Source: Burkholderiales bacterium
Lineage (GTDB): Bacteria; Pseudomonadota; Gammaproteobacteria; Burkholderiales; JAHFRG01
DNA: 64,000 bases
Assembly (NCBI GenBank): GCA_035518095.1
Contig: DATIXX010000020.1
Coordinates: forward strand, 697-64,696
Reading direction: 5' to 3'
The notes beneath the pieces were generated by a model. That model made no database searches and had not been told where the DNA came from. It worked only from the letters and a program-made list of their open reading frames with translations. Positions 29,039-54,862 of this stretch are shown one piece after another (position 1 is the first letter of the stretch; every line of letters starts with the position of its first letter). The position numbers were made by a program, and so were the translations under genes.

Positions 29039-29060
29039 TAAACAAGTTCTCAAGGGACTT

Positions 29061-33920: not shown

Positions 33921-33990
33921 GAGGGCGGCCGCCGCCGGGGATTCGGAGTTATGTTTCACTGTTTAAACAGCCAAACTAAGGAGAGGCAAA

Positions 33991-34500: not shown

Positions 34501-34538
34501 TCCGGATGCGCAGGTGGGCGATGGGCAGCCGATGCTGC

Positions 34539-35270: not shown

Positions 35271-35387
35271 CGCCTGATTAACCTTGCAGACGACGAAGCA
35301 AAGAGATGCATATGATTAATATTGAGTCCGGTTCCAAAAGATTTTGCGCGCGCCCCCGCGCTTCTGCGGGCGGATAATTCGTTTCAA

Positions 35388-37425: not shown

Positions 37426-37434
37426 AATCCTAGC

Positions 37435-39418: not shown

Positions 39419-39641
39419 CCTAATAAATCTGTATTAGCGAATGCGCAGTTGCGCGGGCAAATTGAGGCCGGCAAAAATAAACCTTCAAATAATTTCTGCA
39501 GGAGGAGGAGCCATGCGCGCGCTAATTCACATCAATTACTTGGCTGTATTCGTACCCAAGACTTGGCCCGCCTTTCCCATATGACACTCTGACAGGCGCG
39601 CCGGGTGGTCGAAAATATGAATTTTCATTGAAGCGCTCTGG

Positions 39642-40334
39642 TTATCGGGCAATAACCGTATTTGGGTCTTTCGCCCGGCAGGAAATTGCATGACGCATCG
39701 CCGAGAGCCGGGAGGAATCCAAAGACTGGTTTCTTTGGTTTCCCGCACACAGCGCGCCACGAAATCCAAGATAGTCCGGTCCAAGTTCGATTAAATAGGG
39801 CACGTCGTCCAGCTGCAGCGAGCCGGCAAGACCCGCCATCAGCCCCAAGGCTTGCGCACGCTGTACGAATTCCCGCAATGCTGCGGCAGCCATCTGGCCG
39901 CGAAGACCGCCGTTGACCTTGTTGGCGGTGTCAAGCATGGCACCCGCAAAGCCGGCCTTGGCAAGATCGGCAAGCAGGCCAAAGTCGCAACTGCGGTCGG
40001 CAAAAAGCACGGCGATTAGCCGCGTATTTCCTGCAAGAGCGGCGATACAATTCTTGTCGGCATCGAAAAAACCGACTTTAATGAAATCCACCCCGGTGGC
40101 GGCCATTCGCGCAGCGGCGTCGCGCAAAATTTGCGGCTGCATCGGCAAATTCCCCAAGGTTGCGCTGACCGTGCAGCGTCGATCCACCATCTTTACCGCA
40201 CGCGCCACGGTAGCCAGAGGCAACGCACCGAGCATGCCGGCCTCGGGATCCTTTAAATCAACGACGTCAGCGCCGCAGGCGAGCGCGAGACGTGCTTCAG
40301 TCAATGATCTTACGCTTGCGAGCAGTCGGGTCAT
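39642..40334 (-). CDS. mfnB: (5-formylfuran-3-yl)methyl phosphate synthase, MfnB-like (Orf22)
   Basis: LASVRSLTEARLALACGADVVDLKDP and DFIKVGFF indicate an aldolase-type TIM barrel. The ATG at 40334 overlaps the upstream stop (ATGA). Confidence 0.8.
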   Translation of the reverse strand: MTRLLASVRSLTEARLALACGADVVDLKDPEAGMLGALPLATVARAVKMVDRRCTVSATLGNLPMQPQILRDAAARMAATGVDFIKVGFFDADKNCIAALAGNTRLIAVLFADRSCDFGLLADLAKAGFAGAMLDTANKVNGGLRGQMAAAALREFVQRAQALGLMAGLAGSLQLDDVPYLIELGPDYLGFRGALCAGNQRNQSLDSSRLSAMRHAISCRAKDPNTVIAR

Positions 40335-40906
40335 GCGGTGTGTTTTTGCGCCAAAAGCGTGCGGTGCGCGTTGATTTTTTCCAACAACCAGCCCCATGCT
40401 TCGCGTTCTGCGGGACCGGCGGTTTTTTCAATTGCAATGGCGAGGTATTTCACTTCGCTTTCGATCTTGTCCCACGGTAGCATTTGCAAACGACTCACCA
40501 GGATTGCCGCCTCCAGCACCGCCGCCTGTGCGCGGTTAAAGCCGCGGAATGGTAAGTGGTTGACGCGATGTACCACCTGGCAATAGAGCCGTGGGCGTAA
40601 CTCGTCCTCGTCCATGTGGTCGAGTTTCAGTTCACAGTGTGCAAGCGCCGATTCGAGCCGCACGCAGGGCACTTTGTCCGCGGGTACAGTGGGCCAGTCA
40701 CGACGGTCCGTAAGGCAGCCGGCGAATACGCGCACATCGTCGCAACAATTGACCACTGCGCAGTTGCTCTCGAGGACATTATCCAGGGTGGTGGACGGGC
40801 GAAACGGCGCGAGTAGGATCATACCGCGGTCTTCGCGAATGCCCATGGGCGCGATGTGAACGCGGCCGTCATTGGCCCTGGTGGAAACTATTGTTTCAAA
40901 AATCAT
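40331..40906 (-). CDS. DUF447-type split-barrel protein of H4MPT islands (Orf17-type, function unknown)
   Basis: 191 aa; MIFETIVSTRANDGRVHIAPMGI is typical of this family. Confidence 0.65.
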   Translation of the reverse strand: MIFETIVSTRANDGRVHIAPMGIREDRGMILLAPFRPSTTLDNVLESNCAVVNCCDDVRVFAGCLTDRRDWPTVPADKVPCVRLESALAHCELKLDHMDEDELRPRLYCQVVHRVNHLPFRGFNRAQAAVLEAAILVSRLQMLPWDKIESEVKYLAIAIEKTAGPAEREAWGWLLEKINAHRTLLAQKHTA

Positions 40907-40936
40907 ATCGGGCCTGAACCCTCCAGTAAATTCTGC

Positions 40937-42358
40937 CTATTTGTTTTTTGCTTTTTTCTTCACCACTTCAAGCGTCGTGCCCGGTGCACGATGCTGCGTC
41001 AAATCCTCTGGCTTGCGCTCAACTGCGCAGCCCCAATCCAGTTCCTCATCCTGATTGTAACGCTTGGCCAATTGCCAGGCGACTTGCGCGCGCGCCAGCT
41101 CCACCCCGAGATAGAAAGCGTGCGCGGCATCGTTCTTCAGATCGAGATGGGGAAACAAGGCAAACGGATCGGTGGCAATATGTAGGCCATCGCGGTTGTA
41201 AATGTGAATGCCTTGTTCGCTGACTTGAATTCTGTAGCTCGGATCCTTGATAGTGCCTGCCAGCTCGGCGATCTCTTCCGCGCTGTCCGGAAAAGGTTTG
41301 CGTGCATGGACGGTAAGCAGTTGCGAGGAGAAATCGCGCGGCAGGCTCGACGCTTCCCGCGCCGCGTACATAATACGTCGCGCCACGTCCGCTTCGCGTA
41401 CCGCACGCCGCGCATGCGGGCTTACTTGGGTCGTGAGAACGTTGGTGACACGCAATTCCGATATGATGCCCATGAGCAGCGCGTTAATCCCCGTAGTGTC
41501 GGCATCGGTCAATTCCGTCAGATTACCGATCCCCATCATGATCTCGGCTTCCGGATGCCGCCGCCTCAGCTCGTAATACCGCGCCAGCGAGTCGACAAAT
41601 CCGGTGTGTATCGGGTCCAACACCGAGTCGGCAATAAACCGGCGGCCGCGCGCCGCCATTTTTTTCATCGCTCGCTCAAGCGACGCGATATCGCCGGGCA
41701 AGTCAGGAATCAGCACCGGAGTTGACTCAACTTCCTCCGCAACCCATAAGGTATTTTCCTTAAGGCTTAACAGATAATCCGCTCCGGCTTTGCCGCCGCG
41801 CAGCAGTTCTTCCGGTTCGATCGAATCCACACTGATTTCATATCCCGACGACTTCAGTGTGAGAACCGCTTCTTCGAGATGGGGAAACGGTGTTTCCGGT
41901 AGGCAGCCGAGGTCAATCACATCTGCACCATCGTTACGGTAGCTTTTCGCACACCGCAGAATCTGTTCGATGTTTAGTTGAGGCGCGTCAACGATTTCGG
42001 CGAATATGCGCACATCGTAACGGCTCAGGTCTTTGTTTGCGTCACGCCTGCCGAAGTACTGCGGCAGGTCTTTCAATTCATCGGGCCCGCGCACCACGGG
42101 CACGCCGTAGTGTTCTGAAATGGCTTCAAGATTACCGCGGCAGCGGCCGGGCACCATGATACGAGTGCTGTTGCCGGCCGTGGGCAGGCGTCGCATGATC
42201 AAATCGGCGGTCATCAGGCCCGCTACACTGATGCCGATGTTCAATACCTGGTAAGTGAATTCGCCGGGCTGCATTTGGCTGAGTACCCGATTGAGGCTTT
42301 TTTCGGCCAGCCTGCCGGTGAGAAATAAGATGTGTTCGGACATACGCTTAATATACAC
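40937..42358 (-). CDS. Dihydropteroate-synthase-like pterin-binding protein (H4MPT biosynthesis)
   Basis: It has a pterin-binding barrel (GADVIDLGC, ISVDS, IMMGIGNLTE) plus a C-terminal extension. The start (GTG 42358 versus ATG 42343) is uncertain. Confidence 0.75.
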   Translation of the reverse strand: MYIKRMSEHILFLTGRLAEKSLNRVLSQMQPGEFTYQVLNIGISVAGLMTADLIMRRLPTAGNSTRIMVPGRCRGNLEAISEHYGVPVVRGPDELKDLPQYFGRRDANKDLSRYDVRIFAEIVDAPQLNIEQILRCAKSYRNDGADVIDLGCLPETPFPHLEEAVLTLKSSGYEISVDSIEPEELLRGGKAGADYLLSLKENTLWVAEEVESTPVLIPDLPGDIASLERAMKKMAARGRRFIADSVLDPIHTGFVDSLARYYELRRRHPEAEIMMGIGNLTELTDADTTGINALLMGIISELRVTNVLTTQVSPHARRAVREADVARRIMYAAREASSLPRDFSSQLLTVHARKPFPDSAEEIAELAGTIKDPSYRIQVSEQGIHIYNRDGLHIATDPFALFPHLDLKNDAAHAFYLGVELARAQVAWQLAKRYNQDEELDWGCAVERKPEDLTQHRAPGTTLEVVKKKAKNK

Positions 42359-42385
42359 CTGGGGCGGGGACCGGCGATTTCAGCT

Positions 42386-42931
42386 CTATATGCCCAGCGC
42401 CTTCATGCGCGCGCTAACCGCGTCGCGCAACTCTTCGATGCGCATAACCACTGTGACATTTTCAAAGCTTTTCAGTTTTTCCGTGTTGTCGAGATCAATT
42501 TTGCGCGGGTATAGCGTCACCCACTCCTTTGGCGCTTCAGTGGTTACCACCGGCTCGGTATCGCAAGCAAAGACGATGCTGTGTACTCGACACTTTCCGG
42601 CTTGCGCGAAAATGTTGGTAACCAGGCTGTCTGAAATGCCGCAAACGCATTTGGCGACCGTGTTGGACGTAGCGGGAGCGATGACCACGGTATGGTAATG
42701 CCCGTAGTAGAACAAACCTACCGGCGCAGCACTTGCGGTGTTGTCCCGGAATACGCGAAAGCGCGCGCGCAGTTCCTTCAAATTGTGAGCGTACATGTGC
42801 ACAACCTCGGCCGCTGCTTTCGACAGATATAGGTCGACGTGCGGCAACTCAAGCGCGATGTTCAGTGATTCCCTGAGGAAATGTCCGGAGCCGGTTAGTG
42901 CCCAGGCGAGGCGGGGCTTGTGATCGCGCAC
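42386..42931 (-). CDS. AfpA/DmrB-family flavoprotein (candidate dihydromethanopterin reductase)
   Basis: LAWALTGSGHFL and VVIAPATSNTVAK are flavoprotein (CoaC-fold) motifs. The start is a GTG, 14 nt after the upstream stop. Confidence 0.75.
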   Translation of the reverse strand: MRDHKPRLAWALTGSGHFLRESLNIALELPHVDLYLSKAAAEVVHMYAHNLKELRARFRVFRDNTASAAPVGLFYYGHYHTVVIAPATSNTVAKCVCGISDSLVTNIFAQAGKCRVHSIVFACDTEPVVTTEAPKEWVTLYPRKIDLDNTEKLKSFENVTVVMRIEELRDAVSARMKALGI

Positions 42932-42945: not shown

Positions 42946-44892
42946 CTAGCGAAGGGTATCTTTATTTGGGTCTTTAATATTCAGCCGCTGCATTTTTCGG
43001 TACAGGGTATTGCGGCTGACCTTAAGTTGCCGCGCCACATTCGTGATGTTCCAATGGTGGCTTTCCAATTCGCGACACAGTGCGCCCCTCTCTGCAGACT
43101 CCAGAGGATTGAGCGCTGCCATCGTATCGTTGCGGATATCGCGCGCTGGCTCCCGGCCGCCGCCGATTTCCTGAGGTAGGTCCTTGATGGCGATGGTGTC
43201 GTCTTCGCGTAGCGCAAGCACGGTGCGCAGTACATTGCGCAACTGGCGGATATTGCCGGGCCAGCGATAACGTTCCAACGCCGCCAGGGCCTGCTCGTCA
43301 ATTTCAACTTTACGGCTCTCGGTATTTTCTGTTGCCAGAATATTTTTTATTAGGCTGCGCTTATCGGCGCGCTCGCGCAGCGGGGGCAAGGAAACACTGA
43401 GTCCGTTGAGGCGGTAATACAGATCCTGGCGGAACTCTCCCTTAAGTATTTTTTCAGTAAGATTGCAATGCGTGGCGCTGATCAGTTTGATATCCACTTT
43501 TACCGGGAGCTCGCTGCCGAGAGGCAGGACCTCGCGTTCTTCGAGCACGCGCAGCAGCCGCGCCTGAAGCTGGATCGGCATATCTCCGATTTCGTCCAGG
43601 AACAATGTGCCCCCGTTCGCCTGAAAAATTTTTCCTCTCTGGCCTTCCCTGCTTGCGCCGGTGAACGCTCCGGCCTTGTACCCAAACAATTCGGACTCGA
43701 TCAGCGTTTCCGGAATGGACGCACAATTGATAGCCACGAACGGCTTATCGGCGCGGCTGCTCGAATAGTGCAGGGCTTTGGCGAACATTTCCTTACCTGT
43801 GCCGGTTTCTCCATAAATAAGCACCGCCACTTCACGGCTCAGCACGCGCTTGGCCGCACCGATATTGCGCTGCATTAATGGATCGCCAAACTCCAGCTCA
43901 TCAAGCGGTGAGGTCCCGGCTGCAGGAGGGGTGTTTAAGCCTTTCCGGTACCCGCGCGGCGCGGCCGGAACCGGCTTGACGCCTTCGGGCTGTTGTGCAA
44001 CCGCGAAATAGCGGCCGCCGTGTCGCGCTTCGAAGATCGGCATCGGGCGGAATGAATTGCGCGAGGAAAGCTCAAGCGAGGATTGCAGTGTTGTATTGAA
44101 CAATTCGCCAATGTCCTTGCCGCAAACATCGCGCGGCACCGAATATCCGAGCTGAAATAAAGCGCTGTGATTCGCCGCCATCACGCGGCCGTCCCCTGCA
44201 AAAGCGATCGCGCCCTCGCCCAGGGTGCCCACAAATTCAGGTCGGCTGTGGAAGCGCACGATGAATTCCCTGCTGAAATTCGAAAGAAAAACCCGGTTCT
44301 CTATCATTTGCGCCGACATGTTGACCAGTACCAGGGTGTGCTGCTGTGCCAGCCGAGATTCCCCCGAAGCATCCAATACGGCAAGCAGCTTTCCCTCGTG
44401 GTCGAAAATCGGCGCGGCGGAGCAGGTAAGCCCGATATTGCGCGCCAGGAAATGTTCCCGGTGATGAATGATCAGCGGTTTTTTTTCGATCAGGCAGGTG
44501 CCCATTCCATTGGTACCTTGGTATTGCTCGCTCCACACCGCGCCCAGCATCAAGCCTGTTTTTGACGCGGTAACGGTGAACTCAGGGTCACCAAAATAAC
44601 TGAGCAGCACGCCGTCCACATCGGTAAGCATGATGGCGTACCGCGAGCCCGCGAGTTGCTGATAAAGATTGGACATTTCGGTCTTGGCTATAGACAGTAC
44701 CTCGACGATTCGCTCCTGGCGTTCCAGCAATTCGCGCCGGTCCACGACGGCCGGGTCCCGGGGGCCTGCAGGGTCCAACCGGTAATCGTCGAGGCAACGC
44801 TTCCAGGAACGGATGACTCTGGCGTCGTCAAATTTTACCGCGCCCTTCAGGACGGAATGAATGAACTTGGCGTGCGTGGTGAGATCAGACAT
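42946..44892 (-). CDS. Sigma-54-dependent enhancer-binding protein with an N-terminal GAF-type sensor (AcoR-like)
   Basis: Walker A GETGTGKE, the GAFTGA loop (KAGAFTGA), LFLDEIGDM and a C-terminal Fis-type HTH (NITNVARQLKVSRNTLYRKM) are present. The N-terminal ~300 aa are AcoR/GAF-like. Confidence 0.9.
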   Translation of the reverse strand: MSDLTTHAKFIHSVLKGAVKFDDARVIRSWKRCLDDYRLDPAGPRDPAVVDRRELLERQERIVEVLSIAKTEMSNLYQQLAGSRYAIMLTDVDGVLLSYFGDPEFTVTASKTGLMLGAVWSEQYQGTNGMGTCLIEKKPLIIHHREHFLARNIGLTCSAAPIFDHEGKLLAVLDASGESRLAQQHTLVLVNMSAQMIENRVFLSNFSREFIVRFHSRPEFVGTLGEGAIAFAGDGRVMAANHSALFQLGYSVPRDVCGKDIGELFNTTLQSSLELSSRNSFRPMPIFEARHGGRYFAVAQQPEGVKPVPAAPRGYRKGLNTPPAAGTSPLDELEFGDPLMQRNIGAAKRVLSREVAVLIYGETGTGKEMFAKALHYSSSRADKPFVAINCASIPETLIESELFGYKAGAFTGASREGQRGKIFQANGGTLFLDEIGDMPIQLQARLLRVLEEREVLPLGSELPVKVDIKLISATHCNLTEKILKGEFRQDLYYRLNGLSVSLPPLRERADKRSLIKNILATENTESRKVEIDEQALAALERYRWPGNIRQLRNVLRTVLALREDDTIAIKDLPQEIGGGREPARDIRNDTMAALNPLESAERGALCRELESHHWNITNVARQLKVSRNTLYRKMQRLNIKDPNKDTLR

Positions 44893-45095
44893 CTGAAGAA
44901 ATAATTCTTTTTGGCTTTTGTGTTTTAAAATTGAAAATGCTGCAGCCAGTTGTGGCGCAAATTTTTTTTATAGCCAAGACGAAAGCTTGATACAGCAACT
45001 ATGTGTATTATAGTGTTTTACGTTAAAACTGGCTACGTTGTGTAAGTTGTCCTTTTGCAAAGTTTTTTAATGGCATATCACGAGGAGTTGATTCG

Positions 45096-45437
45096 ATGAA
45101 AAGGTATTTAGCTTGGCTGGCGCTGCTATTTTTGCCGGGGGCAGCGCTTGCTTACGATTACCCGACATACGACAGAGTGGCGTTCGTTTTGCAATGCGCC
45201 CAACAATATCCCGATTATCAGTATTACGGGTCCCTGTATAAGTGTTCCTGCGCGATTGACGCCATCGCCAAAAAAATGAAATACGACGATTTCGTGGAAC
45301 AATTTACCGCGGCGCGGGGACAACACACTGCAGGCGAGGGCGGCGGCATTTTCCGGGATGCACCCGAGATCAAAAAAATGGCGAAACGCTACGAAGAAAT
45401 CAAAGCCGAGGCTGAAAAGGAATGTCTGCTCAAGTAA
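45096..45437 (+). CDS. Hypothetical small secreted Cys-containing protein
   Basis: GAGGAG lies upstream. Signal peptide MKRYLAWLALLFLPGAALA; the mature protein has 4 Cys. No family was recognised. Confidence 0.5.
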   Translation: MKRYLAWLALLFLPGAALAYDYPTYDRVAFVLQCAQQYPDYQYYGSLYKCSCAIDAIAKKMKYDDFVEQFTAARGQHTAGEGGGIFRDAPEIKKMAKRYEEIKAEAEKECLLK

Positions 45438-45759
45438 GGCTTTAATGCGAAAGTTGCACAGATTTGGCCAAGGAGCATAGTTGTTTGCGGTCGCGGGCTT
45501 CGCGTCACGGGCGCTGCTATTTTAAGCTGTAAAAAACGGCGCTTTCAGCAATAGACCGTTACGAGAACTTTAGCGATCCAGGGCCCAGCTTCACTCATGA
45601 TTACGCCCGCCATCGGCCGGATCGCTGAATATCCATGAGATAAACTGCATACATTGAGTCCGGCACATCAACCCATGCTGCGCGGAGGATGGAGGTAATG
45701 CAGTACGGGAGGCAATTTTCCTGCAGCTCCCTCAACCCGCCAATCCCAGATCCAGCAGC

Positions 45760-46605
45760 TTAACTTCCCGCGGCGGTCACGCCGGGTTCCACATGGATGG
45801 AGCTGTTGAATTTGAGATCATTTGAATCAATGACCTCGGCTTTCAGATCGCCGGATGTGCGCGGAGTGAAATAAAAGCGGAAGTTCGGGTTTTCGCTGAT
45901 GGAAAAATCCACGTCAGCCGAGAGTATCAACTTGCCGTTGTAAGTAACGTCTACCTTTTTCACATAACGCGCGGGAATGTAGAGACGCGTCAACTGATCC
46001 ATTTGTAGCCCCGAGTTATTGGGATGGCTGATCATGAGCTGAGCGAGATTCGGATGATCGAGCGCAACTTTATTGTCAACGCGGAATTTCATTTTGCCGA
46101 GCCGGGCCAGTGCTGCCTCTTGATCTTTTCCTGCCGGTGCCGAGCAGCCGCCGGACGCTTTTACATAGCGCGTTGCCATGTATAGCTTGCCATCGCTCGT
46201 TTCGGCGATTGCCCGTACGTAGGTGTATTGTTCGATTCTCACCCGCGTGTCGATGTCCGCGCGCCCGCTATCCGGAGTGAGGTGAAATACTGCAGCAATT
46301 GGCGAGGGGTTCTGGTCGATAATCAGATAAATCTTTTGCACATACCTTTGCGATGTCTGCGGGATTCCGGCTTTGATGGAAATCGGAACCGTGGCCGCAT
46401 CTTCTGCCCGCACCGGCGCTTCAAGCGTGATTATTTCGTTTCCAGACGTCTCAATCGGCCGGCCTTCGAACAGCATATTTCTTACCTTGATCCAGGTTTC
46501 GGATTTGGAGGGATCCGTAGCGGTATCGGCCGCATTGGCGTGAGCGGCGCACAAAATCGTGCTTAAAACGAGCGCAAGCCGCGTCAAAGAAATTAAACTG
46601 TTCAT
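45760..46605 (-). CDS. Fused SoxY-like/SoxZ-like periplasmic carrier protein
   Basis: The ATG at 46605 gives a signal peptide. The SoxY-like half (ITLEAPVRAEDAATVPISI, IYLIIDQNPSP) ends in GGC (Cys codon 46144-46146). The SoxZ-like half follows (ISHPNNSGLQMD, SISENPNFRFYF). Confidence 0.75.
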   Translation of the reverse strand: MNSLISLTRLALVLSTILCAAHANAADTATDPSKSETWIKVRNMLFEGRPIETSGNEIITLEAPVRAEDAATVPISIKAGIPQTSQRYVQKIYLIIDQNPSPIAAVFHLTPDSGRADIDTRVRIEQYTYVRAIAETSDGKLYMATRYVKASGGCSAPAGKDQEAALARLGKMKFRVDNKVALDHPNLAQLMISHPNNSGLQMDQLTRLYIPARYVKKVDVTYNGKLILSADVDFSISENPNFRFYFTPRTSGDLKAEVIDSNDLKFNSSIHVEPGVTAAGS

Positions 46606-46675
46606 TTTTTGCCTTCCAAAAGCGGGTTCGGAAACACCACTGACAGTAGTATAGACGCGAACCTCAGCCCAGTCA

Positions 46676-47602
46676 TCAGTCTTCCCATTCGAGCTCGGCA
46701 TAAGCTGCCGTGACATTGCGCCGATGGAATGAATCGAACAACAGCCAGTGGTCGCGCTGCGATAATCCCACAGTATCCACGGCTTGTTGCAAGGTCTCCC
46801 CGCGCTTGATCGCAGCGCGCACTTCGCGCAGCAGATCATTCAAATAATCGGATTCCGCCTGCAGCGCCTGAGGCCAGGCCGGATCAAGCTCTCCATGTCC
46901 GGGAATGACGTGGCGCGCTTTGATTCCCCGAAGTTCCGTAAGCACACTGAGCCAGCCTTTGAGGCTGCCGTCAACGACCGGAATATGCCCGGTGAAAAGC
47001 AGATCGGCGAGCCACAGCGTCTGTGTTTTTTCGTCAAATATTGTCAAGTCGTTATCAGTATGCGCAGTAGGCCAGGCCTTGAGGACAAGCCGGCGGTTTC
47101 CGAGGTCAAGTTCCGTCGAATCCTTGACGGTCAGTGTCGGCAGGATGATTTCACTTCCTTGAGCCTCGGGCCCGACGTCGCGCAACAGCGCATGCAGATA
47201 GTTGGCGCCGCGCGCCGCCATTGCCGCAGGTAATTTGTAATGGCCGACAAACACCGGGTGATCCTGTTTGAAAGCCGCATTGCCGAAAATATGATCAGGA
47301 TGCATGTGCGTGTTGATGACATAGCATATCGGCAGAGGGGTTCTGCTTAATACCGCCTGGCGCAATCTGCGTCCAATTACAATGCTACCGCCAGTGTCGA
47401 TAACCGCAACGCATTTATCTCCAACGATAAAGCCGATGTTGGCGATATCCCCCAGATTTCGCGGCGAGCTTTCCTCTTGCGCGCCGGTGTGTACATAAAT
47501 TCCGGGCGCGATCTCGCTGATGGCGAAATCATCGGCCCGGGCCTTGACTGAAGCAAAAGCCAGAAATAAGCATAACAGTATGCGCAAAGACGGAAATACC
47601 AT
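46676..47602 (-). CDS. Periplasmic metallo-beta-lactamase-fold hydrolase (SoxH-like)
   Basis: The signal peptide starts at the ATG at 47602. The NTHMHPDH zinc motif and downstream PGHG are present. The gene is co-directional with, and 70 nt upstream of, the SoxYZ-like gene. Confidence 0.8.
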   Translation of the reverse strand: MVFPSLRILLCLFLAFASVKARADDFAISEIAPGIYVHTGAQEESSPRNLGDIANIGFIVGDKCVAVIDTGGSIVIGRRLRQAVLSRTPLPICYVINTHMHPDHIFGNAAFKQDHPVFVGHYKLPAAMAARGANYLHALLRDVGPEAQGSEIILPTLTVKDSTELDLGNRRLVLKAWPTAHTDNDLTIFDEKTQTLWLADLLFTGHIPVVDGSLKGWLSVLTELRGIKARHVIPGHGELDPAWPQALQAESDYLNDLLREVRAAIKRGETLQQAVDTVGLSQRDHWLLFDSFHRRNVTAAYAELEWED

Positions 47603-47644
47603 TTCTGCTACTATTACACAAATTGTCGTTAAGTAAAAAATCCG

Positions 47645-48979
47645 ATGAAGGTCCACTCGAACCCTGAATCATCCCCGCACCGCATCGTGATTGTCGGTGG
47701 CGGCGCGGGCGGACTGGAACTCGCCACAGAGCTCGGCGATTCGCTGGGTAAAAAACTCCGCGCCCAGATCACGCTCATTGACAAAATGCGCACGCATTTG
47801 TGGAAGCCCTTGCTTCACGAAGTGGCGGCGGGCAGCATGGACCTCGATACCAATAAACTCGAGTATCTGGCGCAGGCACACTGGCATAATTTCCAGTTTC
47901 GTCTCGGAAGCATGGATGGGATAAGCCGCGCGCAACGGCAGGTCTTTGTCGCGCCCACTTTTGATGACCAGGGCGAGGAGCTTATTCCGCGACATGTCAT
48001 TGCGTATGACACGCTGGTGATCGCGGTGGGGAGCACCACCAATGACTACGGCACGCCGGGAGCGGCACAATACGCAATCGCATTGGATACGCCGGAGCAG
48101 GCCGAGCACTTCCGCCGGCGGCTGATCAATGCTTGCATCCGTGCCAACTTTCAGACTGTGCCGCTGCGCCCGGAGCAATTGCAAGTAGCGATTATCGGTG
48201 GCGGCGCCACGGGAGTGGAACTTGCCGCTCATTTACATAACACCACCCGCGAACTGATCGCTTACGGACTGGATAGAATAAACCCGGAAAAAGATATCAA
48301 GGTTTCCATCATCGAGGCTGCGGAGCGCATATTGCCGATGTTGCCCGAGCGCTTGTCAAAAGCAGCGGAACATCAGCTTAAGCCCCTCGGCGTACACGTC
48401 TATGCGGGCGAGCGGGTGACTCAGGTTTCGGCAAACGCGGTGCAAACGCAAAACGGCAGGACGATTCCGGCAGAACTCATCGTTTGGGCGGCTGGCATTA
48501 AGGCGCCGGATTTCCTGAGAAACCTGGACGGGTTGGAAACGAACAGGTTAAACCAATTGATGGTGCGGCCCACGCTGCAGACCACGCGCGACGCAAATAT
48601 TTTTGCCTTCGGAGATTGCGCTTCGTGCCCGTGGCCTGAAAGGAACAGCAGCGTGCCGCCACGCGCTCAAGCCGCGCACCAGCAGGCTTCATTTCTGGTG
48701 AAGGCCATCAAATACCGATTGCGTGGGCACAGCTTGCCTGCCTACCGCTATCGAGATTTTGGTTCGCTGGTATCGCTGGGAAAATACAGCACCATCGGCA
48801 GTTTGATGGGCGCGCTTACCGGCGGTACTCTTTTTCTCGAAGGTTATTTCGCGCGGCTGATGTATGTCTCGCTCTACAAGATGCATCTTTACGAGCTGCA
48901 CGGCTTTTGGAAGGTTTTTTTGGATACGTTGGCGCGGCTGATTACGCGGCGCACTGAGCCGCCGGTCAAGCTGCATTAA
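47645..48979 (+). CDS. ndh: Type II NADH dehydrogenase (NDH-2)
   Basis: HRIVIVGGGAGGLELA and VAIIGGGATGVELA form two dinucleotide folds, and FAFGDCAS is present. Confidence 0.85.
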   Translation: MKVHSNPESSPHRIVIVGGGAGGLELATELGDSLGKKLRAQITLIDKMRTHLWKPLLHEVAAGSMDLDTNKLEYLAQAHWHNFQFRLGSMDGISRAQRQVFVAPTFDDQGEELIPRHVIAYDTLVIAVGSTTNDYGTPGAAQYAIALDTPEQAEHFRRRLINACIRANFQTVPLRPEQLQVAIIGGGATGVELAAHLHNTTRELIAYGLDRINPEKDIKVSIIEAAERILPMLPERLSKAAEHQLKPLGVHVYAGERVTQVSANAVQTQNGRTIPAELIVWAAGIKAPDFLRNLDGLETNRLNQLMVRPTLQTTRDANIFAFGDCASCPWPERNSSVPPRAQAAHQQASFLVKAIKYRLRGHSLPAYRYRDFGSLVSLGKYSTIGSLMGALTGGTLFLEGYFARLMYVSLYKMHLYELHGFWKVFLDTLARLITRRTEPPVKLH

Positions 48980-49044
48980 TCTTCAGAAAATCGCCCGGCG
49001 CGGTTACGCGCATGCAAGTCGGCGAATTGAGCCACAGTGAACCA

Positions 49045-49428
49045 CTACTCGTCGTACTTGACATACTTAAACCGCTGATCCTCATTCGGCGTACCTTCCA
49101 GAGCGCCACCCTCCTTGCCGGGTTGCCACTGGATCACGCTTTCGATTTTCTTGGCGAGTTCGAAATCCTTATCGGTGATACCTTTGGCTGCGTGATTCAT
49201 GAGCTTAACGATCACGAATGCGTAGGAAACCGTAAGGTCGGGGTGGTGCCACGCGGCCTCGGCGAGATGTCCAACGGTGTTTACCACCATGAGCGTGCCC
49301 TTCCAACTCCCGGTACGGTATTTCCTGCGGATCCATCCGTCCTCGTAATACCAGTGTGGCAGCTCCTTTTCCAGCCGTGCCTTGATTTCCGGCTCAGAAT
49401 ATACGCGGGTTTGCTTTTCTGCCTGCAT
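49045..49428 (-). CDS. phhB: Pterin-4a-carbinolamine dehydratase (PCD/DCoH)
   Basis: LPHWYYEDGWIRRKY and AAWHHPDL match the family. Confidence 0.85.
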   Translation of the reverse strand: MQAEKQTRVYSEPEIKARLEKELPHWYYEDGWIRRKYRTGSWKGTLMVVNTVGHLAEAAWHHPDLTVSYAFVIVKLMNHAAKGITDKDFELAKKIESVIQWQPGKEGGALEGTPNEDQRFKYVKYDE

Positions 49429-49525
49429 GTCAACCTCATGTCTAATTTAACATAAACCGGAAGTTCGCCTATTAATTATTTGCGCTATTCAAAATCCTTT
49501 AGCTGGATTTGCATCTAATGGCTTT

Positions 49526-49545
49526 TCATTTCTGACACAAGATGT
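49526..49545 (+). repeat. Direct repeat copy 1 upstream of xoxF (TTCATTTCTGACACAAGATG)
   Basis: It is 18/20 identical to 49566-49585, with a 40-nt start-to-start spacing. Confidence 0.6.
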
Positions 49546-49565
49546 TAACTAGTTTAATTGAAGGA

Positions 49566-49585
49566 TTCATTTATGACACAAAATG
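49566..49585 (+). repeat. Direct repeat copy 2 upstream of xoxF (TTCATTTATGACACAAAATG)
   Basis: It is 18/20 identical to 49526-49545. Confidence 0.6.
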
Positions 49586-49660
49586 CAAATTCATATTGAT
49601 CAATTAATATGTTGTAAATTAACAACAAAAACCGGTTCTGTTGTGCTCATAAATTGCAAT

Positions 49661-49688
49661 TTGATTCGGGCATATTCTGTGCTATAGT
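49661..49688 (+). promoter_or_regulatory. Sigma-70-like promoter candidate for xoxF
   Basis: TTGATT (49661-49666), a 16-nt spacer, then TATAGT (49683-49688). The predicted TSS is near 49695. Confidence 0.35.
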
Positions 49689-49692
49689 GCGT

Positions 49693-49770
49693 GAAGGTAA
49701 TGCACCTCGTTACCTTCCCCTAAAGTAAACTCTTGTGACGAACAATTTTTTGCTGTTCGTCATTTAGGGG
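49693..49770 (+). promoter_or_regulatory. Two adjacent stem-loops in the xoxF leader
   Basis: HP1 pairs GAAGGTAA (49693-49700) with TTACCTTC (49710-49717). HP2 pairs CCCCTAAA (49717-49724) with TTTAGGGG (49763-49770) and TGACGAACA (49736-49744) with TGTTCGTCA (49754-49762), with an 11-nt 5' bulge. Confidence 0.6.
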
Positions 49771-49825
49771 CCGTGGTGAAAAATAGTTTTTCTCTCTTAA
49801 AGATTCTTTGAAGGAGGAAGTTGAT

Positions 49826-51637
49826 ATGACGATTAAATCGCAATTGAAGCACCTGCCATGGGTGCTGGCTGCGCTGGCAATATCAGGTTTGGCGTTCGCC
49901 GGTTCCGATTCCGACTTGGAAAAGCTCATGAACAATCCCAGCAACTGGGCTCATCCAAGCGGCAATTTTTATCTTTGGCGGTATAGCAAACTGAACCAAA
50001 TCAACAAAGAAAACGTGGGCAGGATGAAAGTGGCTTGGACCTTCTCCACCGGGGTATTGCGTGGGCATGAAGGCGGGCCGCTGGTGATTGGCGACACGCT
50101 GTATATCCATTCGGCGTTTCCCAACAAAGTGTTTGCAATTAACCTGGCTGACCAAACCATCAAGTGGAAGTACGTGCCCACCCAAGATCCCAGCGTGATT
50201 CCCGTAATGTGTTGCGACACGGTAAATCGCGGCTTGGCCTATGGCGAAGGCAAGATCCTCCTGCAGCAAGCGGATACCACTTTGGTGGCGCTGGATGCTA
50301 ATAGTGGCGAAGTAGTCTGGTCAGTGAAGAACGGCAATCCCAAGATCGGCGAAACCAACACCAACGCGCCGTTTGTCATGAAAGACAAGGTGATGACCGG
50401 CATCAGCGGTGGTGAGTTTGGTGTGCTGGGCCGTGTTACTGCCTATAACCTCAGCGACGGCAAAAAGGTGTGGAGTTGCAATAGCTCGGGACCGGATGAC
50501 ACGATCTGCGTGGACCCGAACAATACCATGACCTGGACCGACGGCAAGATGGCGCCGGTTGGCCCCGATTCTTCGCTGAAGACCTGGCAAGGCGATCAGT
50601 GGAAAATCGGTGGCGGCACGACTTGGGGCTGGTATGGCTATGATCCTGCCTTGGGCCAGATGTTCTACGGTTCGGGCAACCCGAGCACTTGGAATCCGCA
50701 TCAACGTCCCGGTGACAACAAGTGGTCCATGACGATCTGGTCGCGCAATGTTGATACCGGAATGGCTAAGTGGGTCTACCAAATGACGCCGCACGACGAG
50801 TGGGATTACGACGGTATCAACGAGATGATCCTGGCTGACATCCCGGTGCATGGGAAACACACCAAGGCATTGGTGCACTTCGACCGCAACGGCTTCGGCT
50901 ACACGCTTGACCGCGTGACCGGTGCCCTGCTGGTGGCTCAAAAATATGACCCGGCGGTGAACTGGGCGACGCACGTTGACATGAAGACCGGCCGTCCGCA
51001 AGTGGTTGCGAAGTACAGCACGGATCAAAACGGTCCCGATGTCGACACCAAAGGCGTGTGCCCGGCGGCACTGGGCACTAAAGACGAGCAACCCGCTTCA
51101 TTCGACCCGCAAACCGGCCTGTTTTATGTGCCCACGAACCACGTGTGCATGAACTACGAGCCGTTCAAGGTTGAATATACCGCAGGCCAGCCGTATGTAG
51201 GGGCAACGCTGTCGATGTTCCCCGCACCCGGCGAACATGGCGATATGGGCAACTTCATCGCTTGGGATGCGGGTACGGGCAAGATCGTTCAATCCCACGG
51301 GGAGAGATTCTCGGTGTGGAGCGGCGTTCTGACCACCGCGGGTGGAATTGCCTGCTACGGCACGCTCGAGGGCTACCTGAAGTGCGTGGATGCTAGGAAC
51401 ATCAACAAAGAACTGTACAAGTTCAAAACTCCGTCCGGCATCATCGGCAACGTCAATACCTGGGAATATAAAGGCAAGCAGTACATCGGTGTGCTATCCG
51501 GCATCGGTGGCTGGGCCGGCATTGGTTTGGCGGCCGGTCTGACGAAAGACACTGACGGCCTCGGTGCCGTGGGTGGCTACAAGGATCTCTCCAGGTACAC
51601 AGATCTGGGCGGCACGCTGACCGTGTTCTCGCTATAG
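49826..51637 (+). CDS. xoxF: Lanthanide-type PQQ-dependent methanol dehydrogenase (XoxF)
   Basis: AAGGAGGA lies 8 nt upstream of the ATG at 49826. A signal peptide, the vicinal Cys pair (VMCCD) and W-D-Y-D-G (nt 50801-50815) are present; the D-Y-D signature marks XoxF, where MxaF has D-x-A. Confidence 0.95.
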
Positions 51638-51674
51638 AGAACGAGGTCGTTTGGCAATTTAGTTGAACCGAATA

Positions 51675-51712
51675 ACTGGCATCTTGACTAAAGTTGAGAT
51701 GCCAGTTTTTTT
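51675..51712 (+). terminator. Rho-independent terminator/attenuator between xoxF and xoxG
   Basis: A perfect 10-bp stem, ACTGGCATCT / AGATGCCAGT, with a 12-nt loop, followed by TTTTTT. Confidence 0.8.
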
Positions 51713-51748
51713 GTTGCCGCGCGATGCCCAACTGAAAAGGTATTTCGC

Positions 51749-52141
51749 ATGAAATTTAAAATTGTGCTTTTGGCGGCTCTTCTGCTGACAAGCGTTGTGG
51801 TCTTTGCAGATGACAAGCCGCTGTATACCGTAGCGGACGGCAATAAGGTTGACGCGAATACCCTCGCAGGGTGGAAAACTTGGCGCGCGATGGCATGCGA
51901 ACGCTGCCACGGCGCGCAGCAGCAAGGACTGGTCGGGCCGTCTTTGATCGAGGGGCTGAAGAAGCTTACCAAGGAACAATTCAAGGAAACGGTGTTGAAC
52001 GGCAGGCCCGGTACGGTGATGCCGCCATTCAAGGAATCCAAAATGGTTAACGACAACATCGACAATCTTTATGCGTATCTCAAAGGGCGTTCCGACGGTG
52101 CGATCAAGCCCGGTCATCTTCTTCCAATTGAAAGCAAATAG
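51749..52141 (+). CDS. xoxG: Periplasmic c-type cytochrome (XoxG-like electron acceptor)
   Basis: It has a signal peptide and a single CERCH haem-binding motif, and lies immediately downstream of xoxF. Confidence 0.8.
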   Translation: MKFKIVLLAALLLTSVVVFADDKPLYTVADGNKVDANTLAGWKTWRAMACERCHGAQQQGLVGPSLIEGLKKLTKEQFKETVLNGRPGTVMPPFKESKMVNDNIDNLYAYLKGRSDGAIKPGHLLPIESK

Positions 52142-52205
52142 CGATATCTGTGGCAGCATCGGTCTTTCTTCACGAAAAAGTGTATTATTCACAGAAGGCA
52201 AATTA

Positions 52206-53060
52206 ATGATTCGCATTCAAAACCTGCAGGTCTTAACATTCATATTGGCAAGCCTGGCTTGCATGATAAGCGCGCCGGCCTTCGCCGAACCACCGGGCGG
52301 TAAAGCTTTACGTGTCTGCGCAGACCCGAATAACTTGCCATTCTCCAACAGCAAACAGGAAGGTTTCGAAAACAAGATCGCGCAACTTTTCGCGAAACAA
52401 CTGGGCTTGCCGCTCGAATATACCTGGTATCCGCAGCGCTTCGGGTTTTTGCGCAACACCCTGAGGGCGCGCGTCGAGGACGGCAGTTTTAAATGCGACC
52501 TGATTATGGGCGTATCAGCCAATTATCCGGAGACAGCGACCTCCATGCCGTATTACCGGTCGACATATATGATGGTATATGTCAAAGGCAAGGGACTCGA
52601 CAGCGTGAAAACGCCCCAAGACCTGCTCAAGCTACCCAACCTCCGTTCGCTCAAATTCGGCGTGTTTGGCCGCACTCCGGCGGCGGATTGGGTGCTCAAG
52701 TACAACCTTATGGAGCAGGTAGTGCCTTACCAATTGCAGACCGGAGACATCGCGGATTACACGGGTAAGGTTATTTTTGACGACCTGCTGCCCGGCAAGG
52801 TCAACGTGCTGTTCATTTGGGGGCCGATAGCGGGTTACTTTGCCAAACAACATCCTGAGCTCGTCCTCGTTTCCATGCAGTCGGAAAATGGTCAAGTGTA
52901 CCAAGGCCGTAACGTCGCTTTTGACTACGCCATCGCCATGGGTATGCGCCAACCGGACAAGGAATGGAAAGAAGAAGTCAACAAGCTGATAGAAAAAAAT
53001 CGCGACCAGATTAATGCGATTCTCGACGAGTACGGTGTGCCTTTAGTCAAGGAGCAGTAA
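52206..53060 (+). CDS. xoxJ: MxaJ/XoxJ-family periplasmic binding protein
   Basis: The ATG at 52206 gives a signal peptide. LRVCADPNNLPFSN is typical of the MoxJ family. Confidence 0.85.
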   Translation: MIRIQNLQVLTFILASLACMISAPAFAEPPGGKALRVCADPNNLPFSNSKQEGFENKIAQLFAKQLGLPLEYTWYPQRFGFLRNTLRARVEDGSFKCDLIMGVSANYPETATSMPYYRSTYMMVYVKGKGLDSVKTPQDLLKLPNLRSLKFGVFGRTPAADWVLKYNLMEQVVPYQLQTGDIADYTGKVIFDDLLPGKVNVLFIWGPIAGYFAKQHPELVLVSMQSENGQVYQGRNVAFDYAIAMGMRQPDKEWKEEVNKLIEKNRDQINAILDEYGVPLVKEQ

Positions 53061-53077: not shown

Positions 53078-54118
53078 ATGGCTGAAAAAAAATTCGCGAC
53101 CCTTGCCCTTTTTGCGCCATTGCTATTATTTCCGCTGCCTGGCGCCGCCGCGATGGATTTTGAGTTTTACGCCAAAATTGCCTCCACAGTAGTGAAAATC
53201 GAAGCAGCGAACCCCGATGGCAGCACTTCGGTTGGTTCTGCCGTAGTGGTCGGCCCGAACCGGTTGGTTACCAATTGTCATGTAACCCGGAACGCCACCA
53301 CAATCGCGGTGATTAAATCCGGACAGCGCTGGTCCGCGCAAAAACAGCTGAGCGATGTGCAGCATGATTTGTGTCTGCTTTATGTTCCGGGAGCCACGGT
53401 GCCGGTGGCCCGGTTTGCGAACGACGAGCTCAAAGTAGGACAGCTTGTGTACGCAATCGGTTACGTCAACGGACTGGGCCCGCGCATGACCAGCGGCCAG
53501 GTCCGGGCGCTGTATAACTATGACGGCGGCAAAGTCATACAAAGCACAACTCAATTCAGGTTTGGCGCCAGCGGCGGCGGACTGTTTGACGAGCAAGGCA
53601 GGCTGGTCGGGGTCGTGACCTTCATTTCGCGGCTCGATCAGAGCTACGATTTTTCGCTGCCGGTGAGCTGGGTAACGCACCGGATGGCGATGGACAAGTT
53701 GCAGAACGTGGCGCCGTTGCCCGAGGAATTTGCGTTCTGGCAACAACCGTATGAGCGCGAGCCGTTCTTTTTGCAGGCAGCGGCTCTGGAAGCAAGCAAA
53801 AAGTGGAACCAAATGCTGGAACTTGCGCAAAGATGGTCGGCCGCCGAGAGCGGCAACTCAAATTCCTGGCTGGCTTTAGGTAAAGCCCACCAGCAACTGC
53901 AGCAATATGACCAAGCCGTTGCAGCCTACCGCAAAGCCATCGCACTGGAGCGCGATTATCCGGAGGCCTGGTACAATCTCGGTTTGGTGTATCTCGACTT
54001 GGGAAAAGACCGCGAAGCCGAGGACGTGAGCAAAGTGCTGGGCGGCATGGACCAGGAGCTGGCGCAAGAGCTGTCAAAAGCACAGACTTTGCACCAGAAT
54101 TCCGATAGCGCAATGTAG
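53078..54118 (+). CDS. Secreted trypsin-like (S1) serine protease domain fused to TPR repeats
   Basis: It has a signal peptide and a His/Asp/Ser triad context (VTNCHV, HDLCLL, GASGGGLF). C-terminal TPRs are present (WLALGKAH..YDQAVAAYRKAI, AWYNLGLVYLDLG). Confidence 0.7.
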   Translation: MAEKKFATLALFAPLLLFPLPGAAAMDFEFYAKIASTVVKIEAANPDGSTSVGSAVVVGPNRLVTNCHVTRNATTIAVIKSGQRWSAQKQLSDVQHDLCLLYVPGATVPVARFANDELKVGQLVYAIGYVNGLGPRMTSGQVRALYNYDGGKVIQSTTQFRFGASGGGLFDEQGRLVGVVTFISRLDQSYDFSLPVSWVTHRMAMDKLQNVAPLPEEFAFWQQPYEREPFFLQAAALEASKKWNQMLELAQRWSAAESGNSNSWLALGKAHQQLQQYDQAVAAYRKAIALERDYPEAWYNLGLVYLDLGKDREAEDVSKVLGGMDQELAQELSKAQTLHQNSDSAM

Positions 54119-54160: not shown

Positions 54161-54862
54161 ATGCAGGCAAGACATATTTTTACGGCAGGTGCAGTGATGT
54201 TTTTTTTATTTTCGCCGGCAGCCGCGTTTGCCGATGAGAAAATTTCGGAGGCGGAAATTCTGCTTTTTGAAACCAACCACTTGAAAACGATCACCAAGCC
54301 GGAAAAATTGCACTACATTTTTATTAGAAGCGGGACATTGGAGCCAAACTTCCACGATAACGTTGAAATCTCGATTGATAAGGTCATGCCGGATGGTGGT
54401 AAGACCGTGACGACTGAATTCTTGTCCGGGTCAAACAAAGTAAATTATCCACCCATGGAGGACGTGACGGGCAACCCGGTTTTATTGTGGTTTCTGGAAC
54501 GGGATATTCACGAAATGCAGCGCATCACCGGCGGCAAATCTCCGTTTTTCAGGCGTCGCATACGGCTTGCGCTGGCCGACCATGCCGAGGTGCATCCGGT
54601 TAAAATTGCCTATAACGGCAAGGAAATGGACGCGAAAGAAATCAAGATTTCGCCCTACGTCAATGACGAGGTGATGAAGGAGCGTGCCGCCACGCATATC
54701 GGCAAGTATTATCTTTTTGTTCTGTCCGAGGGGATTCCGGGCGAAATATACCAATTGCGCAGTGTGGATCCCGATAGCCGGGTGGACAAATCCGGCAAGG
54801 TATCGCCGCTGATAGAGGAAACCCTCACGTTCAGCCCGGACGAAAACCGGGCTGCGCAGTAA
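54161..54862 (+). CDS. Hypothetical secreted protein
   Basis: 233 aa with a signal peptide (FFLFSPAAAFA). No family was recognised. The gaps to its neighbours are 43 nt and 22 nt. Confidence 0.5.
   Translation: MQARHIFTAGAVMFFLFSPAAAFADEKISEAEILLFETNHLKTITKPEKLHYIFIRSGTLEPNFHDNVEISIDKVMPDGGKTVTTEFLSGSNKVNYPPMEDVTGNPVLLWFLERDIHEMQRITGGKSPFFRRRIRLALADHAEVHPVKIAYNGKEMDAKEIKISPYVNDEVMKERAATHIGKYYLFVLSEGIPGEIYQLRSVDPDSRVDKSGKVSPLIEETLTFSPDENRAAQ

Follow-up and report, generated by a model that had tools for sequence, protein, structure and literature searches.

The window analysed here is a stretch of 64,000 nucleotides of contig DATIXX010000020.1 from a Burkholderiales bacterium. Its minus strand carries two adjacent genes, encoding a SoxYZ-like carrier protein with an internal cysteine and a hydrolase of the metallo-beta-lactamase (MBL) fold, near the gene of a methanol dehydrogenase of the XoxF type, which depends on a lanthanide (Ln) and pyrroloquinoline quinone (PQQ). 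The original prediction, made from the letters alone, had described the pair as a thiol carrier and its hydrolase and had proposed a covalent relay for a product linked to XoxF, for example formaldehyde, or for a persulfide. The pair consists of the following features:

45760..46605, minus strand: fused SoxY-SoxZ-like, predicted periplasmic carrier of 281 aa (TIGR04557, Pfam, AlphaFold (AF2) model, Foldseek)
46144..46146, minus strand: codon of Cys154, the presumed carrier cysteine, in a GGCSAP motif (translation, conservation, alignment)
46676..47602, minus strand: predicted periplasmic MBL-fold metallohydrolase of 308 aa, SoxH-related 'type 2' (TIGR04559), directly upstream of the carrier gene

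The start of the carrier gene was placed at the Met codon at 46605, inside the minus-strand open reading frame (ORF) 45760-46839, because homologues start at the same Met; in four metagenome contigs that encode an identical protein the gene is called at the same length. The N-terminus (MNSLISLTRLALVLSTILCAAHANA) reads as a signal peptide of the Sec type, hydrophobic and lacking a twin-arginine motif. Pfam places SoxY at residues 46-154 (5.4e-38) and SoxZ at residues 180-269 (6e-27), and the peptides quoted in the original prediction for the two halves are all present in the translation; its statement that the halves are fused directly has to be corrected, as a linker of ~25 residues with a short helix separates them. 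The NCBIfam model TIGR04557 matches at positions 1-225 of 226 (290.2 bits versus a cut-off of 140; E 8.5e-87), whereas the scores on the equivalog models for true SoxY (87.7 bits versus 125) and true SoxZ (60.9 bits versus 76) stay below the cut-offs, in line with the earlier expectation that this is not an ordinary Sox carrier. Relatives of this type occur in at least 588 species, counted with one genome per species, and in more than 8000 protein clusters.

The AF2 model of the carrier, which was built from 36 homologues (pLDDT 85.6, pTM 0.81), consists of two beta-sandwich, immunoglobulin (Ig)-like domains, and its low-confidence parts are the signal-peptide cleavage region and residues 153-159 (pLDDT <50). 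In Foldseek comparisons the SoxY-like half matched Paracoccus SoxY 2ox5_Y with a TMt of 0.85 and an rmsd of 2.5 A, and the SoxZ-like half matched SoxZ 2ox5_A with a TMt of 0.87. The carrier thus has the same two folds as SoxYZ of Paracoccus pantotrophus and Thermus thermophilus (2ox5, 4uwq; TMt 0.85-0.87). Nucleotides 46144-46146 translate to Cys154 in the context KASGGCSAPAG, at the domain junction where the original prediction had put it. As in SoxY, a Gly-Gly pair at the close of the last SoxY strand precedes the cysteine, which in the sequence alignment falls onto the arm cysteine of 4uwq_B and 2ox5_Y; covalent carriage would be expected. The two carriers differ in that the window protein is a single polypeptide with an internal GGCSAPxGKD motif on the inter-domain loop and a Sec-type signal peptide, whereas SoxY ends in a free C-terminal GGCGG tail and is exported with a Tat-type signal peptide. 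The residues flanking Cys154 are all small (A-S-G-G-C-S-A-P-A-G), and according to the model the C-terminal swinging arm of SoxY is here turned into a slender internal loop between Ig-like domains. G152, G153 and C154 are invariant in 36 sequences of at least 60% identity (alignment A1), in 76 cluster representatives of 32-60% identity (A2) and also in the intermediate alignment A3; GGC is present in 144 of 150 cluster representatives and G-x-C in four more.

The hydrolase, which the original prediction had recognised from its HMHPDH motif just upstream on the same strand, matches TIGR04559 ('quinoprotein relay system zinc metallohydrolase 2') with 419.7 bits (cut-off 280; E 5.6e-126), versus 194.4 bits on the sister model TIGR04558 (cut-off 300). 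All five MBL metal motifs (D, HxHxDH, H, D, H) are intact, and D69, H99, H101, D103, H104, H181, D200 and H236 are at least 97% conserved among 58 orthologues. We therefore regard the protein as very probably an active metallohydrolase. C64 and C93, near the first two metal motifs, are conserved to the same level (at least 97% of the 58 orthologues) and may be joined in the periplasm by a structural disulfide. Among solved structures, the nearest relatives are the chlorothalonil dehalogenase 6uxu (E 6e-15), the unnamed MBL protein 8d2z and B1 lactamases. The fold and the HxHxDH motif are shared with glyoxalase II, but the glyoxalase II model GSH_gloB (TIGR03413) reached only 29.9 bits (cut-off 200.8) at residues 56-119, the window enzyme is predicted to be periplasmic, and glutathione-binding features were not shown. 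No model of the persulfide dioxygenase (PDO; ETHE1/PDO) type was among the 11 NCBIfam matches with E <=1e-3, although the metal ligands of PDO are a subset of the motifs of the hydrolase.

The family matches of the carrier and the hydrolase are far beyond chance. The two proteins are a TIGR04557/TIGR04559 pair, which is already catalogued and discussed in the literature, and the window holds no new kind of system.

The genes around the pair that matter for its interpretation are:

49808..51637, plus strand: XoxF, lanthanide-type PQQ methanol dehydrogenase (TIGR03075, 693.6 bits; vicinal Cys-Cys, DYD motif)
51749..52141, plus strand: XoxG-like c-type cytochrome (Pfam Cytochrome_CBB3)
52203..53060, plus strand: XoxJ-like periplasmic binding protein of the MoxJ_2 subfamily (TIGR03871, 275.9 bits versus a cut-off of 212)
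53078..54118, plus strand: secreted trypsin-like serine protease with C-terminal TPR repeats (Pfam Trypsin_2 and TPR), directly following xoxJ
54161..54862, plus strand: secreted 233-aa protein without cysteines (no Pfam/NCBIfam match)
45096..45437, plus strand: small secreted 113-aa protein with four conserved Cys (locus conservation; no Pfam/NCBIfam family)
49045..49428, minus strand: PCD-like gene (pterin-4a-carbinolamine dehydratase-like; Pfam Pterin_4a)
47645..48979, plus strand: NDH-2-type NADH dehydrogenase gene, between the PCD-like gene and the MBL gene

XoxF carries DEWDYD, with the extra Asp two residues past the catalytic Asp, and the vicinal cysteines in VMCCDTV; its best matches in the PDB are the lanthanide enzymes 6dam (925 bits) and 6oc5 (902 bits). 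The start of xoxF lies 2.2 kb from the MBL gene, and the profile matches at 49808-53060 bear out the reported neighbourhood of XoxF, XoxG and XoxJ. The four-Cys protein, the protease/TPR protein, the 233-aa protein and the PCD-like gene had been overlooked. The four-Cys protein conserves C34, the KCSC pair C50/C52 and C110 together with the motifs D-x-P-T and GERG-x3-RD; its homologues form at least 19 clusters, all named 'hypothetical protein', and its spread was judged from the locus analysis below. The AF2 model of the 233-aa protein (pLDDT 87.5) gave weak Foldseek matches to half-barrels of the LolA superfamily (TM 0.2-0.3).

To the claim that the window has no SoxAX, SoxB or SoxCD we can add that SoxA, SoxB, SoxC and SoxD are absent from the gene-consistent ORFs of at least 180 aa in the window, a scan that left out antisense shadow ORFs, covered the window and not the whole genome, and could miss a small lone SoxX. 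The carrier therefore has none of these Sox partners at its side, and no sox operon was found in the window.

Gene neighbourhoods were compared in loci that were collected with alignment A3, with one genome per species. The best 80 of at least 588 loci were kept; the statistics on these 80 are biased to beta- and gammaproteobacterial relatives (48-73% identity), and the 36 of them that extend at least 8 kb to either side are called full loci. Neighbouring ORFs were labelled by means of the window proteins and a stricter coverage rule, as under single-linkage clustering overlapping or fused ORFs had linked SoxYZ to MBL, and XoxF to XoxG and XoxJ. The genes recurred as follows:

MBL (either paralogue): 72 of 80 loci, within 300 bp of the carrier gene in 62; 33 of 36 full loci
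113-aa four-Cys protein: 64 of 80 loci; 31 of 36 full loci
XoxF: 45 of 80 loci; 28 of 36 full loci, all Ln-type
XoxG: 47 of 80 loci; 30 of 36 full loci
XoxJ-like protein: 45 of 80 loci; 29 of 36 full loci
233-aa protein: 37 of 80 loci; 22 of 36 full loci; between XoxJ and the four-Cys protein
Trypsin-like/TPR protein: 22 of 80 loci; 15 of 36 full loci; between XoxJ and the 233-aa protein
PCD-like gene: 13 of 80 loci; 7 of 36 full loci
Sigma-54 activator: 11 of 80 loci; 7 of 36 full loci

The MBL copies directly upstream of the carrier gene are nearly all of type 2, and the four-Cys protein is present in more loci than XoxF itself. The commonest order, on one strand, is XoxF-XoxG-XoxJ-(protease/TPR)-233aa-113aa-MBL-SoxYZ-MBL', where MBL' is a second MBL paralogue; in two further arrangements the genes are divergent or the pair lies upstream of XoxF. 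Because there are at least three gene orders in total, the linkage to XoxF is not merely an inherited gene order. Including the window, the loci hold 49 ORFs of PQQ dehydrogenases, 46 of which are XoxF homologues (65-81% identical) with the D-x-D motif, and 43 of these 46 also have the vicinal Cys-Cys; the remaining three are distant (28-32% identical) and without D-x-D. The predicted linkage to PQQ dehydrogenases and the conservation of Cys154 were thus both borne out, the former as a linkage to the lanthanide type and the latter down to 32% identity.

The closest loci to that of the window, among the best 80, are L005 and that of Pelomicrobium. In the window the gene set is complete but split, and the second MBL paralogue is absent. 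The closest relatives (L006, L010, L019, L038, L046, L054, L060) have PCD-MBL-SoxYZ in this order on the same strand, a unit that the NDH-2 gene interrupts in the window. Because a homologue of this gene was found in only one of the 80 loci, L005, a recent insertion or rearrangement is suggested. The gene product, which we take to resemble E. coli Ndh, was also considered as a partner of the sulfide:quinone oxidoreductase (SQR) or flavocytochrome c sulfide dehydrogenase (FCSD) type and rejected, as it scored far below all NCBIfam cut-offs (SQR-like match at residues 13-140, 36.1 bits versus 525). The full set of XoxF, MBL and SoxYZ is also present in L040 (Candidimonas), a member of the Alcaligenaceae, the family of Advenella. 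Some loci further contain genes for glutathione-dependent formaldehyde oxidation (FlhA-like, FghA and Gfa genes in 9-15 loci), pqqBCE, a YncE/PQQ_ABC_repeats propeller, a thioredoxin-like protein, DUF3280 or NAD-formate dehydrogenase, the last of which adjoins the MBL-SoxYZ pair in L034, L036 and L075. In L034 (12373-16881, Methyloversatilis) and L075 (3480-7968, a metagenome-assembled genome of the Methylococcales) the pair lies beside the NAD-linked formate dehydrogenase and not beside xoxF, which matches the arrangement described as 'SoxYZ-S4 with fdh' (PMC11237559).

The carrier and the hydrolase accordingly belong to a conserved accessory gene set of the lanthanide-dependent XoxF5-type methanol dehydrogenase and not part of a Sox thiosulfate-oxidising system. 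This association has been published, and it is less new than the original prediction implied. In a 2026 review of the ped cluster of Pseudomonas, PP_2677 and PP_2678 appear under the family names that the prediction had given and are described as conserved in methylotrophs and in Proteobacteria that encode lanthanide-dependent alcohol dehydrogenases (Ln-ADH; PMC12997753); a 2024 study of SoxY diversification found clades of SoxYZ fusions beside PQQ-ADH and soxH, and beside xoxF and fdh (PMC11237559). These reports, together with the family scores and PMC11582611, also agree with its statement that the pair has no assigned function. The P. putida pair and the Sox(YZ) fusion with SoxH of Hyphomicrobium denitrificans belong to the same two families, show the same adjacency of MBL and carrier and likewise lie near a Ln-type PQQ alcohol dehydrogenase, its cytochrome c and a MoxJ_2-type binding protein (PMC12997753, PMC11582611, PMC11237559), whereas in the window the pair is split from xoxFGJ by the NDH-2 gene and transcribed divergently. 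A rhodanese-like CXXCW gene of the PP_2666 type was found neither in the window nor in the 80 loci.

Members of the two families outside this arrangement give further information on the chemistry to be expected. The second MBL paralogue, which most relatives possess, is 27-36% identical to the window hydrolase and below the cut-offs of both TIGR04558 and TIGR04559; HxHxDH is kept in 0 of 52 sequences and CxxC in all 52, usually as RCxxCL, versus HxHxDH in 58 of 58 and CxxC in one of the type-2 proteins. Examples of this paralogue lie at 11805-12794 in L006, 10764-11729 in L018, 10729-11721 in L073 and 11891-12841 in L040. Natural fusions join the carrier to the CxxC paralogue (P0123, P0174) and to the rhodanese-like TIGR03865 'PQQ-dependent catabolism-associated CXXCW' domain (P0180). 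In L085 (4038-6415) the carrier-TIGR03865 fusion is preceded by a TIGR04559 MBL gene, and no PQQ dehydrogenase lies in the flanks covered, 5 kb at one end and 10 kb at the other. A second carrier paralogue is present in 14 loci.

Fused SoxYZ proteins that are only 33-42% identical to the window carrier still pass TIGR04557 (205-259 bits). Three of the six distant members with enough context, a number that leaves aside the representatives P0186 and P0245 on contigs too short for a neighbourhood, adjoin an FCSD/SQR-like flavoprotein (L088/L089 10001-13539, L090 10001-12138, L092 7538-10146); no PQQ enzyme is nearby in any of the three, and one has a TIGR04559 MBL gene and one a redoxin. Because these FCSD-linked members pass the cut-off without a PQQ enzyme, the 'quinoprotein-associated' name of TIGR04557 over-extends and fits only part of the family. 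SoxH and SoxG of sox clusters are likewise periplasmic MBL-fold proteins beside a SoxYZ-type carrier, with distant relatives beside a SoxF/FCSD-like flavoprotein; the window hydrolase differs from them in belonging to TIGR04559 and in being linked to XoxF and not to SoxAX, SoxB or SoxCD. In Paracoccus, soxH is reportedly dispensable for thiosulfate oxidation.

The general idea of a thiol carrier with a hydrolase that resolves its adduct fits these results, because a conserved Cys on a flexible loop, an intact metal site and a tight gene pairing are all present. Because the conserved pair combines a single-cysteine loop carrier with an intact metallohydrolase, is coupled to Ln-type XoxF and has Cys-rich helpers around it, we propose, with low confidence, a covalent relay in which Cys154 would be loaded and the hydrolase would unload it. 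Of the specific forms that such a relay could take, we favour one that carries a sulfur adduct on Cys154, is unloaded by the hydrolase and serves XoxF, and we give it a rough probability of 0.35. Family membership, architecture, the conservation of the Cys and of the metal site, synteny and the gene fusions are observed, whereas we infer that the two proteins are exported, that the Cys is covalently loaded, what its cargo is, that the cargo is released by hydrolysis and that XoxF benefits.

In the sulfur relay, carrier and hydrolase would both be exported to the periplasm, where Cys154 would sit on the slender, flexible loop between the SoxY-like and SoxZ-like Ig domains. As in SoxY, Cys154 would covalently bind a small group, here inorganic sulfur held through an S-S bond, as a persulfide or as an S-sulfonate/thiosulfonate. 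The adduct could arise when sulfide, sulfite, thiosulfate or tetrathionate meets the strained vicinal disulfide and PQQ of XoxF, or alternatively XoxF itself might act on sulfur oxyanions. The loop would then bring the adduct to the MBL hydrolase, whose binuclear metal site would cleave off the terminal group and free the thiol. This role would be like that of SoxB for SoxYZ, a dinuclear-metal hydrolase that frees the terminal group from the carrier cysteine; the analogy would be one of function and not of homology, the fold of SoxB being of the metallophosphoesterase type, unlike MBL. The small four-Cys protein might keep the redox state of the carrier cysteine or pass the sulfur on, a role that elsewhere could be taken by the CxxC MBL paralogue, a thioredoxin-like protein or a rhodanese-like CXXCW protein.

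Sulfur gains the edge over formaldehyde as the cargo because carrier and hydrolase derive from components that co-occur in sulfur-oxidation clusters, because members outside the XoxF context adjoin sulfide-dehydrogenase-like flavoproteins and because one member is fused to a rhodanese-like domain. A further reason is that thiosulfate disturbs PQQ-dependent growth on methanol, and that a report on ThdT ties an XoxF homologue to thiol and sulfur-oxyanion chemistry. Thiosulfate impairs growth of Hyphomicrobium on methanol, and the SoxYZ fusion has been suggested to be protective (PMC12997753, PMC11237559); the same review offers protection of PQQ from sulfur nucleophiles as one hypothesis and maturation of the disulfide or cofactor as the other (PMC12997753). 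According to a report cited in two preprints (10.1101/683490, 10.1101/708438), ThdT of Advenella kashmirensis, an XoxF homologue, couples tetrathionate to glutathione; a xoxF knockout in Paracoccus reportedly lacked such a phenotype.

Several points weigh against a sulfur cargo. The methylotrophy islands in which the pair lies, in the window and in many related loci, fit a carbon cargo equally well: the window encodes the tetrahydromethanopterin (H4MPT)-linked pathway of formaldehyde oxidation with cofactor-synthesis genes and Fae, and other loci carry genes for glutathione-dependent formaldehyde oxidation, NAD-formate dehydrogenase and pqq genes. The hydrolase alone cannot dispose of sulfane sulfur, and genes for a rhodanese-like CXXCW protein, an FCSD-like protein or the CxxC MBL paralogue are absent from the window. 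The Cys-rich partners favour no cargo over another: whatever a periplasmic carrier holds, the redox state of its thiol has to be maintained, as is the case for SoxYZ. The FCSD-linked members could be functionally distinct subfamilies. Disruption of the P. putida homologues gave minimal phenotypes in a screen by sequencing of randomly barcoded transposon mutants (RB-TnSeq) in the absence of rare earths (PMC12997753), and expression of the H. denitrificans cluster was unchanged by thiosulfate, so that the cluster was set aside in that study (PMC11582611). Our search of the literature brought up no experiment in which the carrier or the hydrolase was itself studied, and none that supports any cargo.

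A carbon relay, which the original prediction had named, as a formaldehyde thiohemiacetal, beside a persulfide, seems to us unlikely, and we lean away from that specific cargo while retaining the identification of the pair, the family names, the cysteine and the linkage. Formaldehyde or another aldehyde would form an S-hydroxymethyl adduct on Cys154, XoxF would oxidise it to an S-formyl thioester, and the MBL enzyme would release formate and the free carrier, in a periplasmic counterpart, on a protein tether, of the glutathione-dependent pathway (Gfa, FlhA, FghA or glyoxalase II). The scheme is chemically coherent, as the S-hydroxymethyl adduct, being a primary alcohol, could be oxidised by a PQQ enzyme, and thioesterases such as glyoxalase II are found among the enzymes of the MBL fold; the slender Cys154 loop could moreover enter a narrow active-site funnel. 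It also agrees with the position of the pair inside one-carbon (C1) islands (XoxF in 28 of 36 full loci, FlhA-like/FghA/Gfa in 9-15 loci, formate dehydrogenase in the three loci named above), a context likewise reported for the clade 'SoxYZ-S4' (PMC11237559). However, the likeness of the hydrolase to glyoxalase II is limited to the generic metal motif, its nearest relatives being B1 lactamases and chlorothalonil dehalogenase; Fae and a complete H4MPT formaldehyde route are already encoded in the window; the distant members are tied to FCSD-like flavoproteins and a rhodanese-like domain and not to alcohol oxidation; and Ca-dependent methanol and alcohol dehydrogenases (MDH/ADH) make the same aldehydes, yet reportedly do so without the pair (PMC12997753).

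Equally doubtful is a more general form in which XoxF acts on a substrate tethered to the carrier. Here Cys154 would enter the active site of XoxF as a co-substrate and the MBL enzyme would resolve the product; either the S-hydroxymethyl group would be oxidised to S-formyl, taking formaldehyde to formate without a free intermediate, or the thiol would be coupled to sulfur oxyanions in the manner reported for ThdT of Advenella with glutathione. If true, this would be the first carrier-protein-dependent quinoprotein pathway, and it would explain why the pair follows the Ln-type but reportedly not the Ca-type enzymes.

Somewhat less probable still is a function in the maturation or redox maintenance of XoxF without any small-molecule cargo, a hypothesis already voiced in PMC12997753. 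The carrier cysteine and the four-Cys protein would then form a thiol-disulfide relay that makes, proof-reads or repairs the vicinal disulfide near PQQ, or that helps to insert the cofactor together with XoxJ, the protease/TPR protein and the 233-aa protein; CxxC and thioredoxin-like proteins would join the relay elsewhere, and MBL would have a separate or supporting role. The vicinal Cys-Cys of the linked XoxF homologues (43/46), a conserved set that is rich in periplasmic Cys proteins and has chaperone-like and protease components, and the MBL paralogue that has exchanged its metal ligands for CxxC (HxHxDH 0/52, CxxC 52/52) are all consistent with such a function. It gives no role, however, to the strictly conserved metal site of the type-2 MBL, which is the commonest direct neighbour of the carrier; the pair is also found without a PQQ enzyme nearby, and Ca-dependent enzymes form the same disulfide without these genes.

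An ordinary or remnant carrier of Sox thiosulfate oxidation that lies near xoxF by chance is very improbable and is refuted as far as sequence can show, since the clear SoxY/SoxZ homology and fold, and the name 'sulfur-oxidizing protein SoxY' that pipelines of the Joint Genome Institute (JGI) often give to homologues, are set against scores below the true-SoxY and true-SoxZ cut-offs, an internal GGCSAP in place of the C-terminal GGCGG, a Sec-type and not Tat-type signal peptide, the lack of SoxA, SoxB, SoxC and SoxD in the window, XoxF synteny kept in 28 of 36 full loci, and the use of the TIGR04557-type family as a non-genuine outgroup to Sox proteins in sulfur-oxidation phylogenies (PMC6382920, PMC13500833).

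No methanol dehydrogenase is more widespread than XoxF and no lanthanide enzyme is better studied, yet most of the genes that travel with it have no known role. The function of the pair, once solved, would annotate genes across all of the species genomes and protein clusters counted above, and it could reveal a link between C1 and sulfur metabolism, a periplasmic route for formaldehyde, or a system for quinoprotein maturation or repair. To the published picture our analysis adds the four-Cys partner, the metal-free CxxC hydrolase paralogue, the natural fusions and the FCSD-linked relatives.

Because the window carries the H4MPT formaldehyde pathway and Fae, the host is an uncultured methylotroph of the Burkholderiales type. 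The H4MPT block (22986-42931 and 33991-34500) adjoins the locus and comprises the formyltransferase/hydrolase complex, MtdB-like, Mch, Fae, DUF447, DUF6513 and ATP-grasp genes. Sigma-54 promoters near the locus, considered in view of the adjacent sigma-54 activator, were rejected, since 42 matches were found versus 43.8 expected by chance; one sigma-54-like site with one mismatch (TGGCATAATAGTTGCT, 27987-28002, plus strand) lies 29 bp upstream of the gene at 28031, within a window-wide count at chance level. Because scans of 44800-50000 for sigma-70 promoters and terminators were likewise at chance level, we claim no operon boundaries. After the xoxF gene set follows a thioredoxin gene without a signal peptide (54885-55256, plus strand), which is present in 0 of the 80 related loci; in nine of these, a different thioredoxin-like gene follows the second SoxYZ paralogue.

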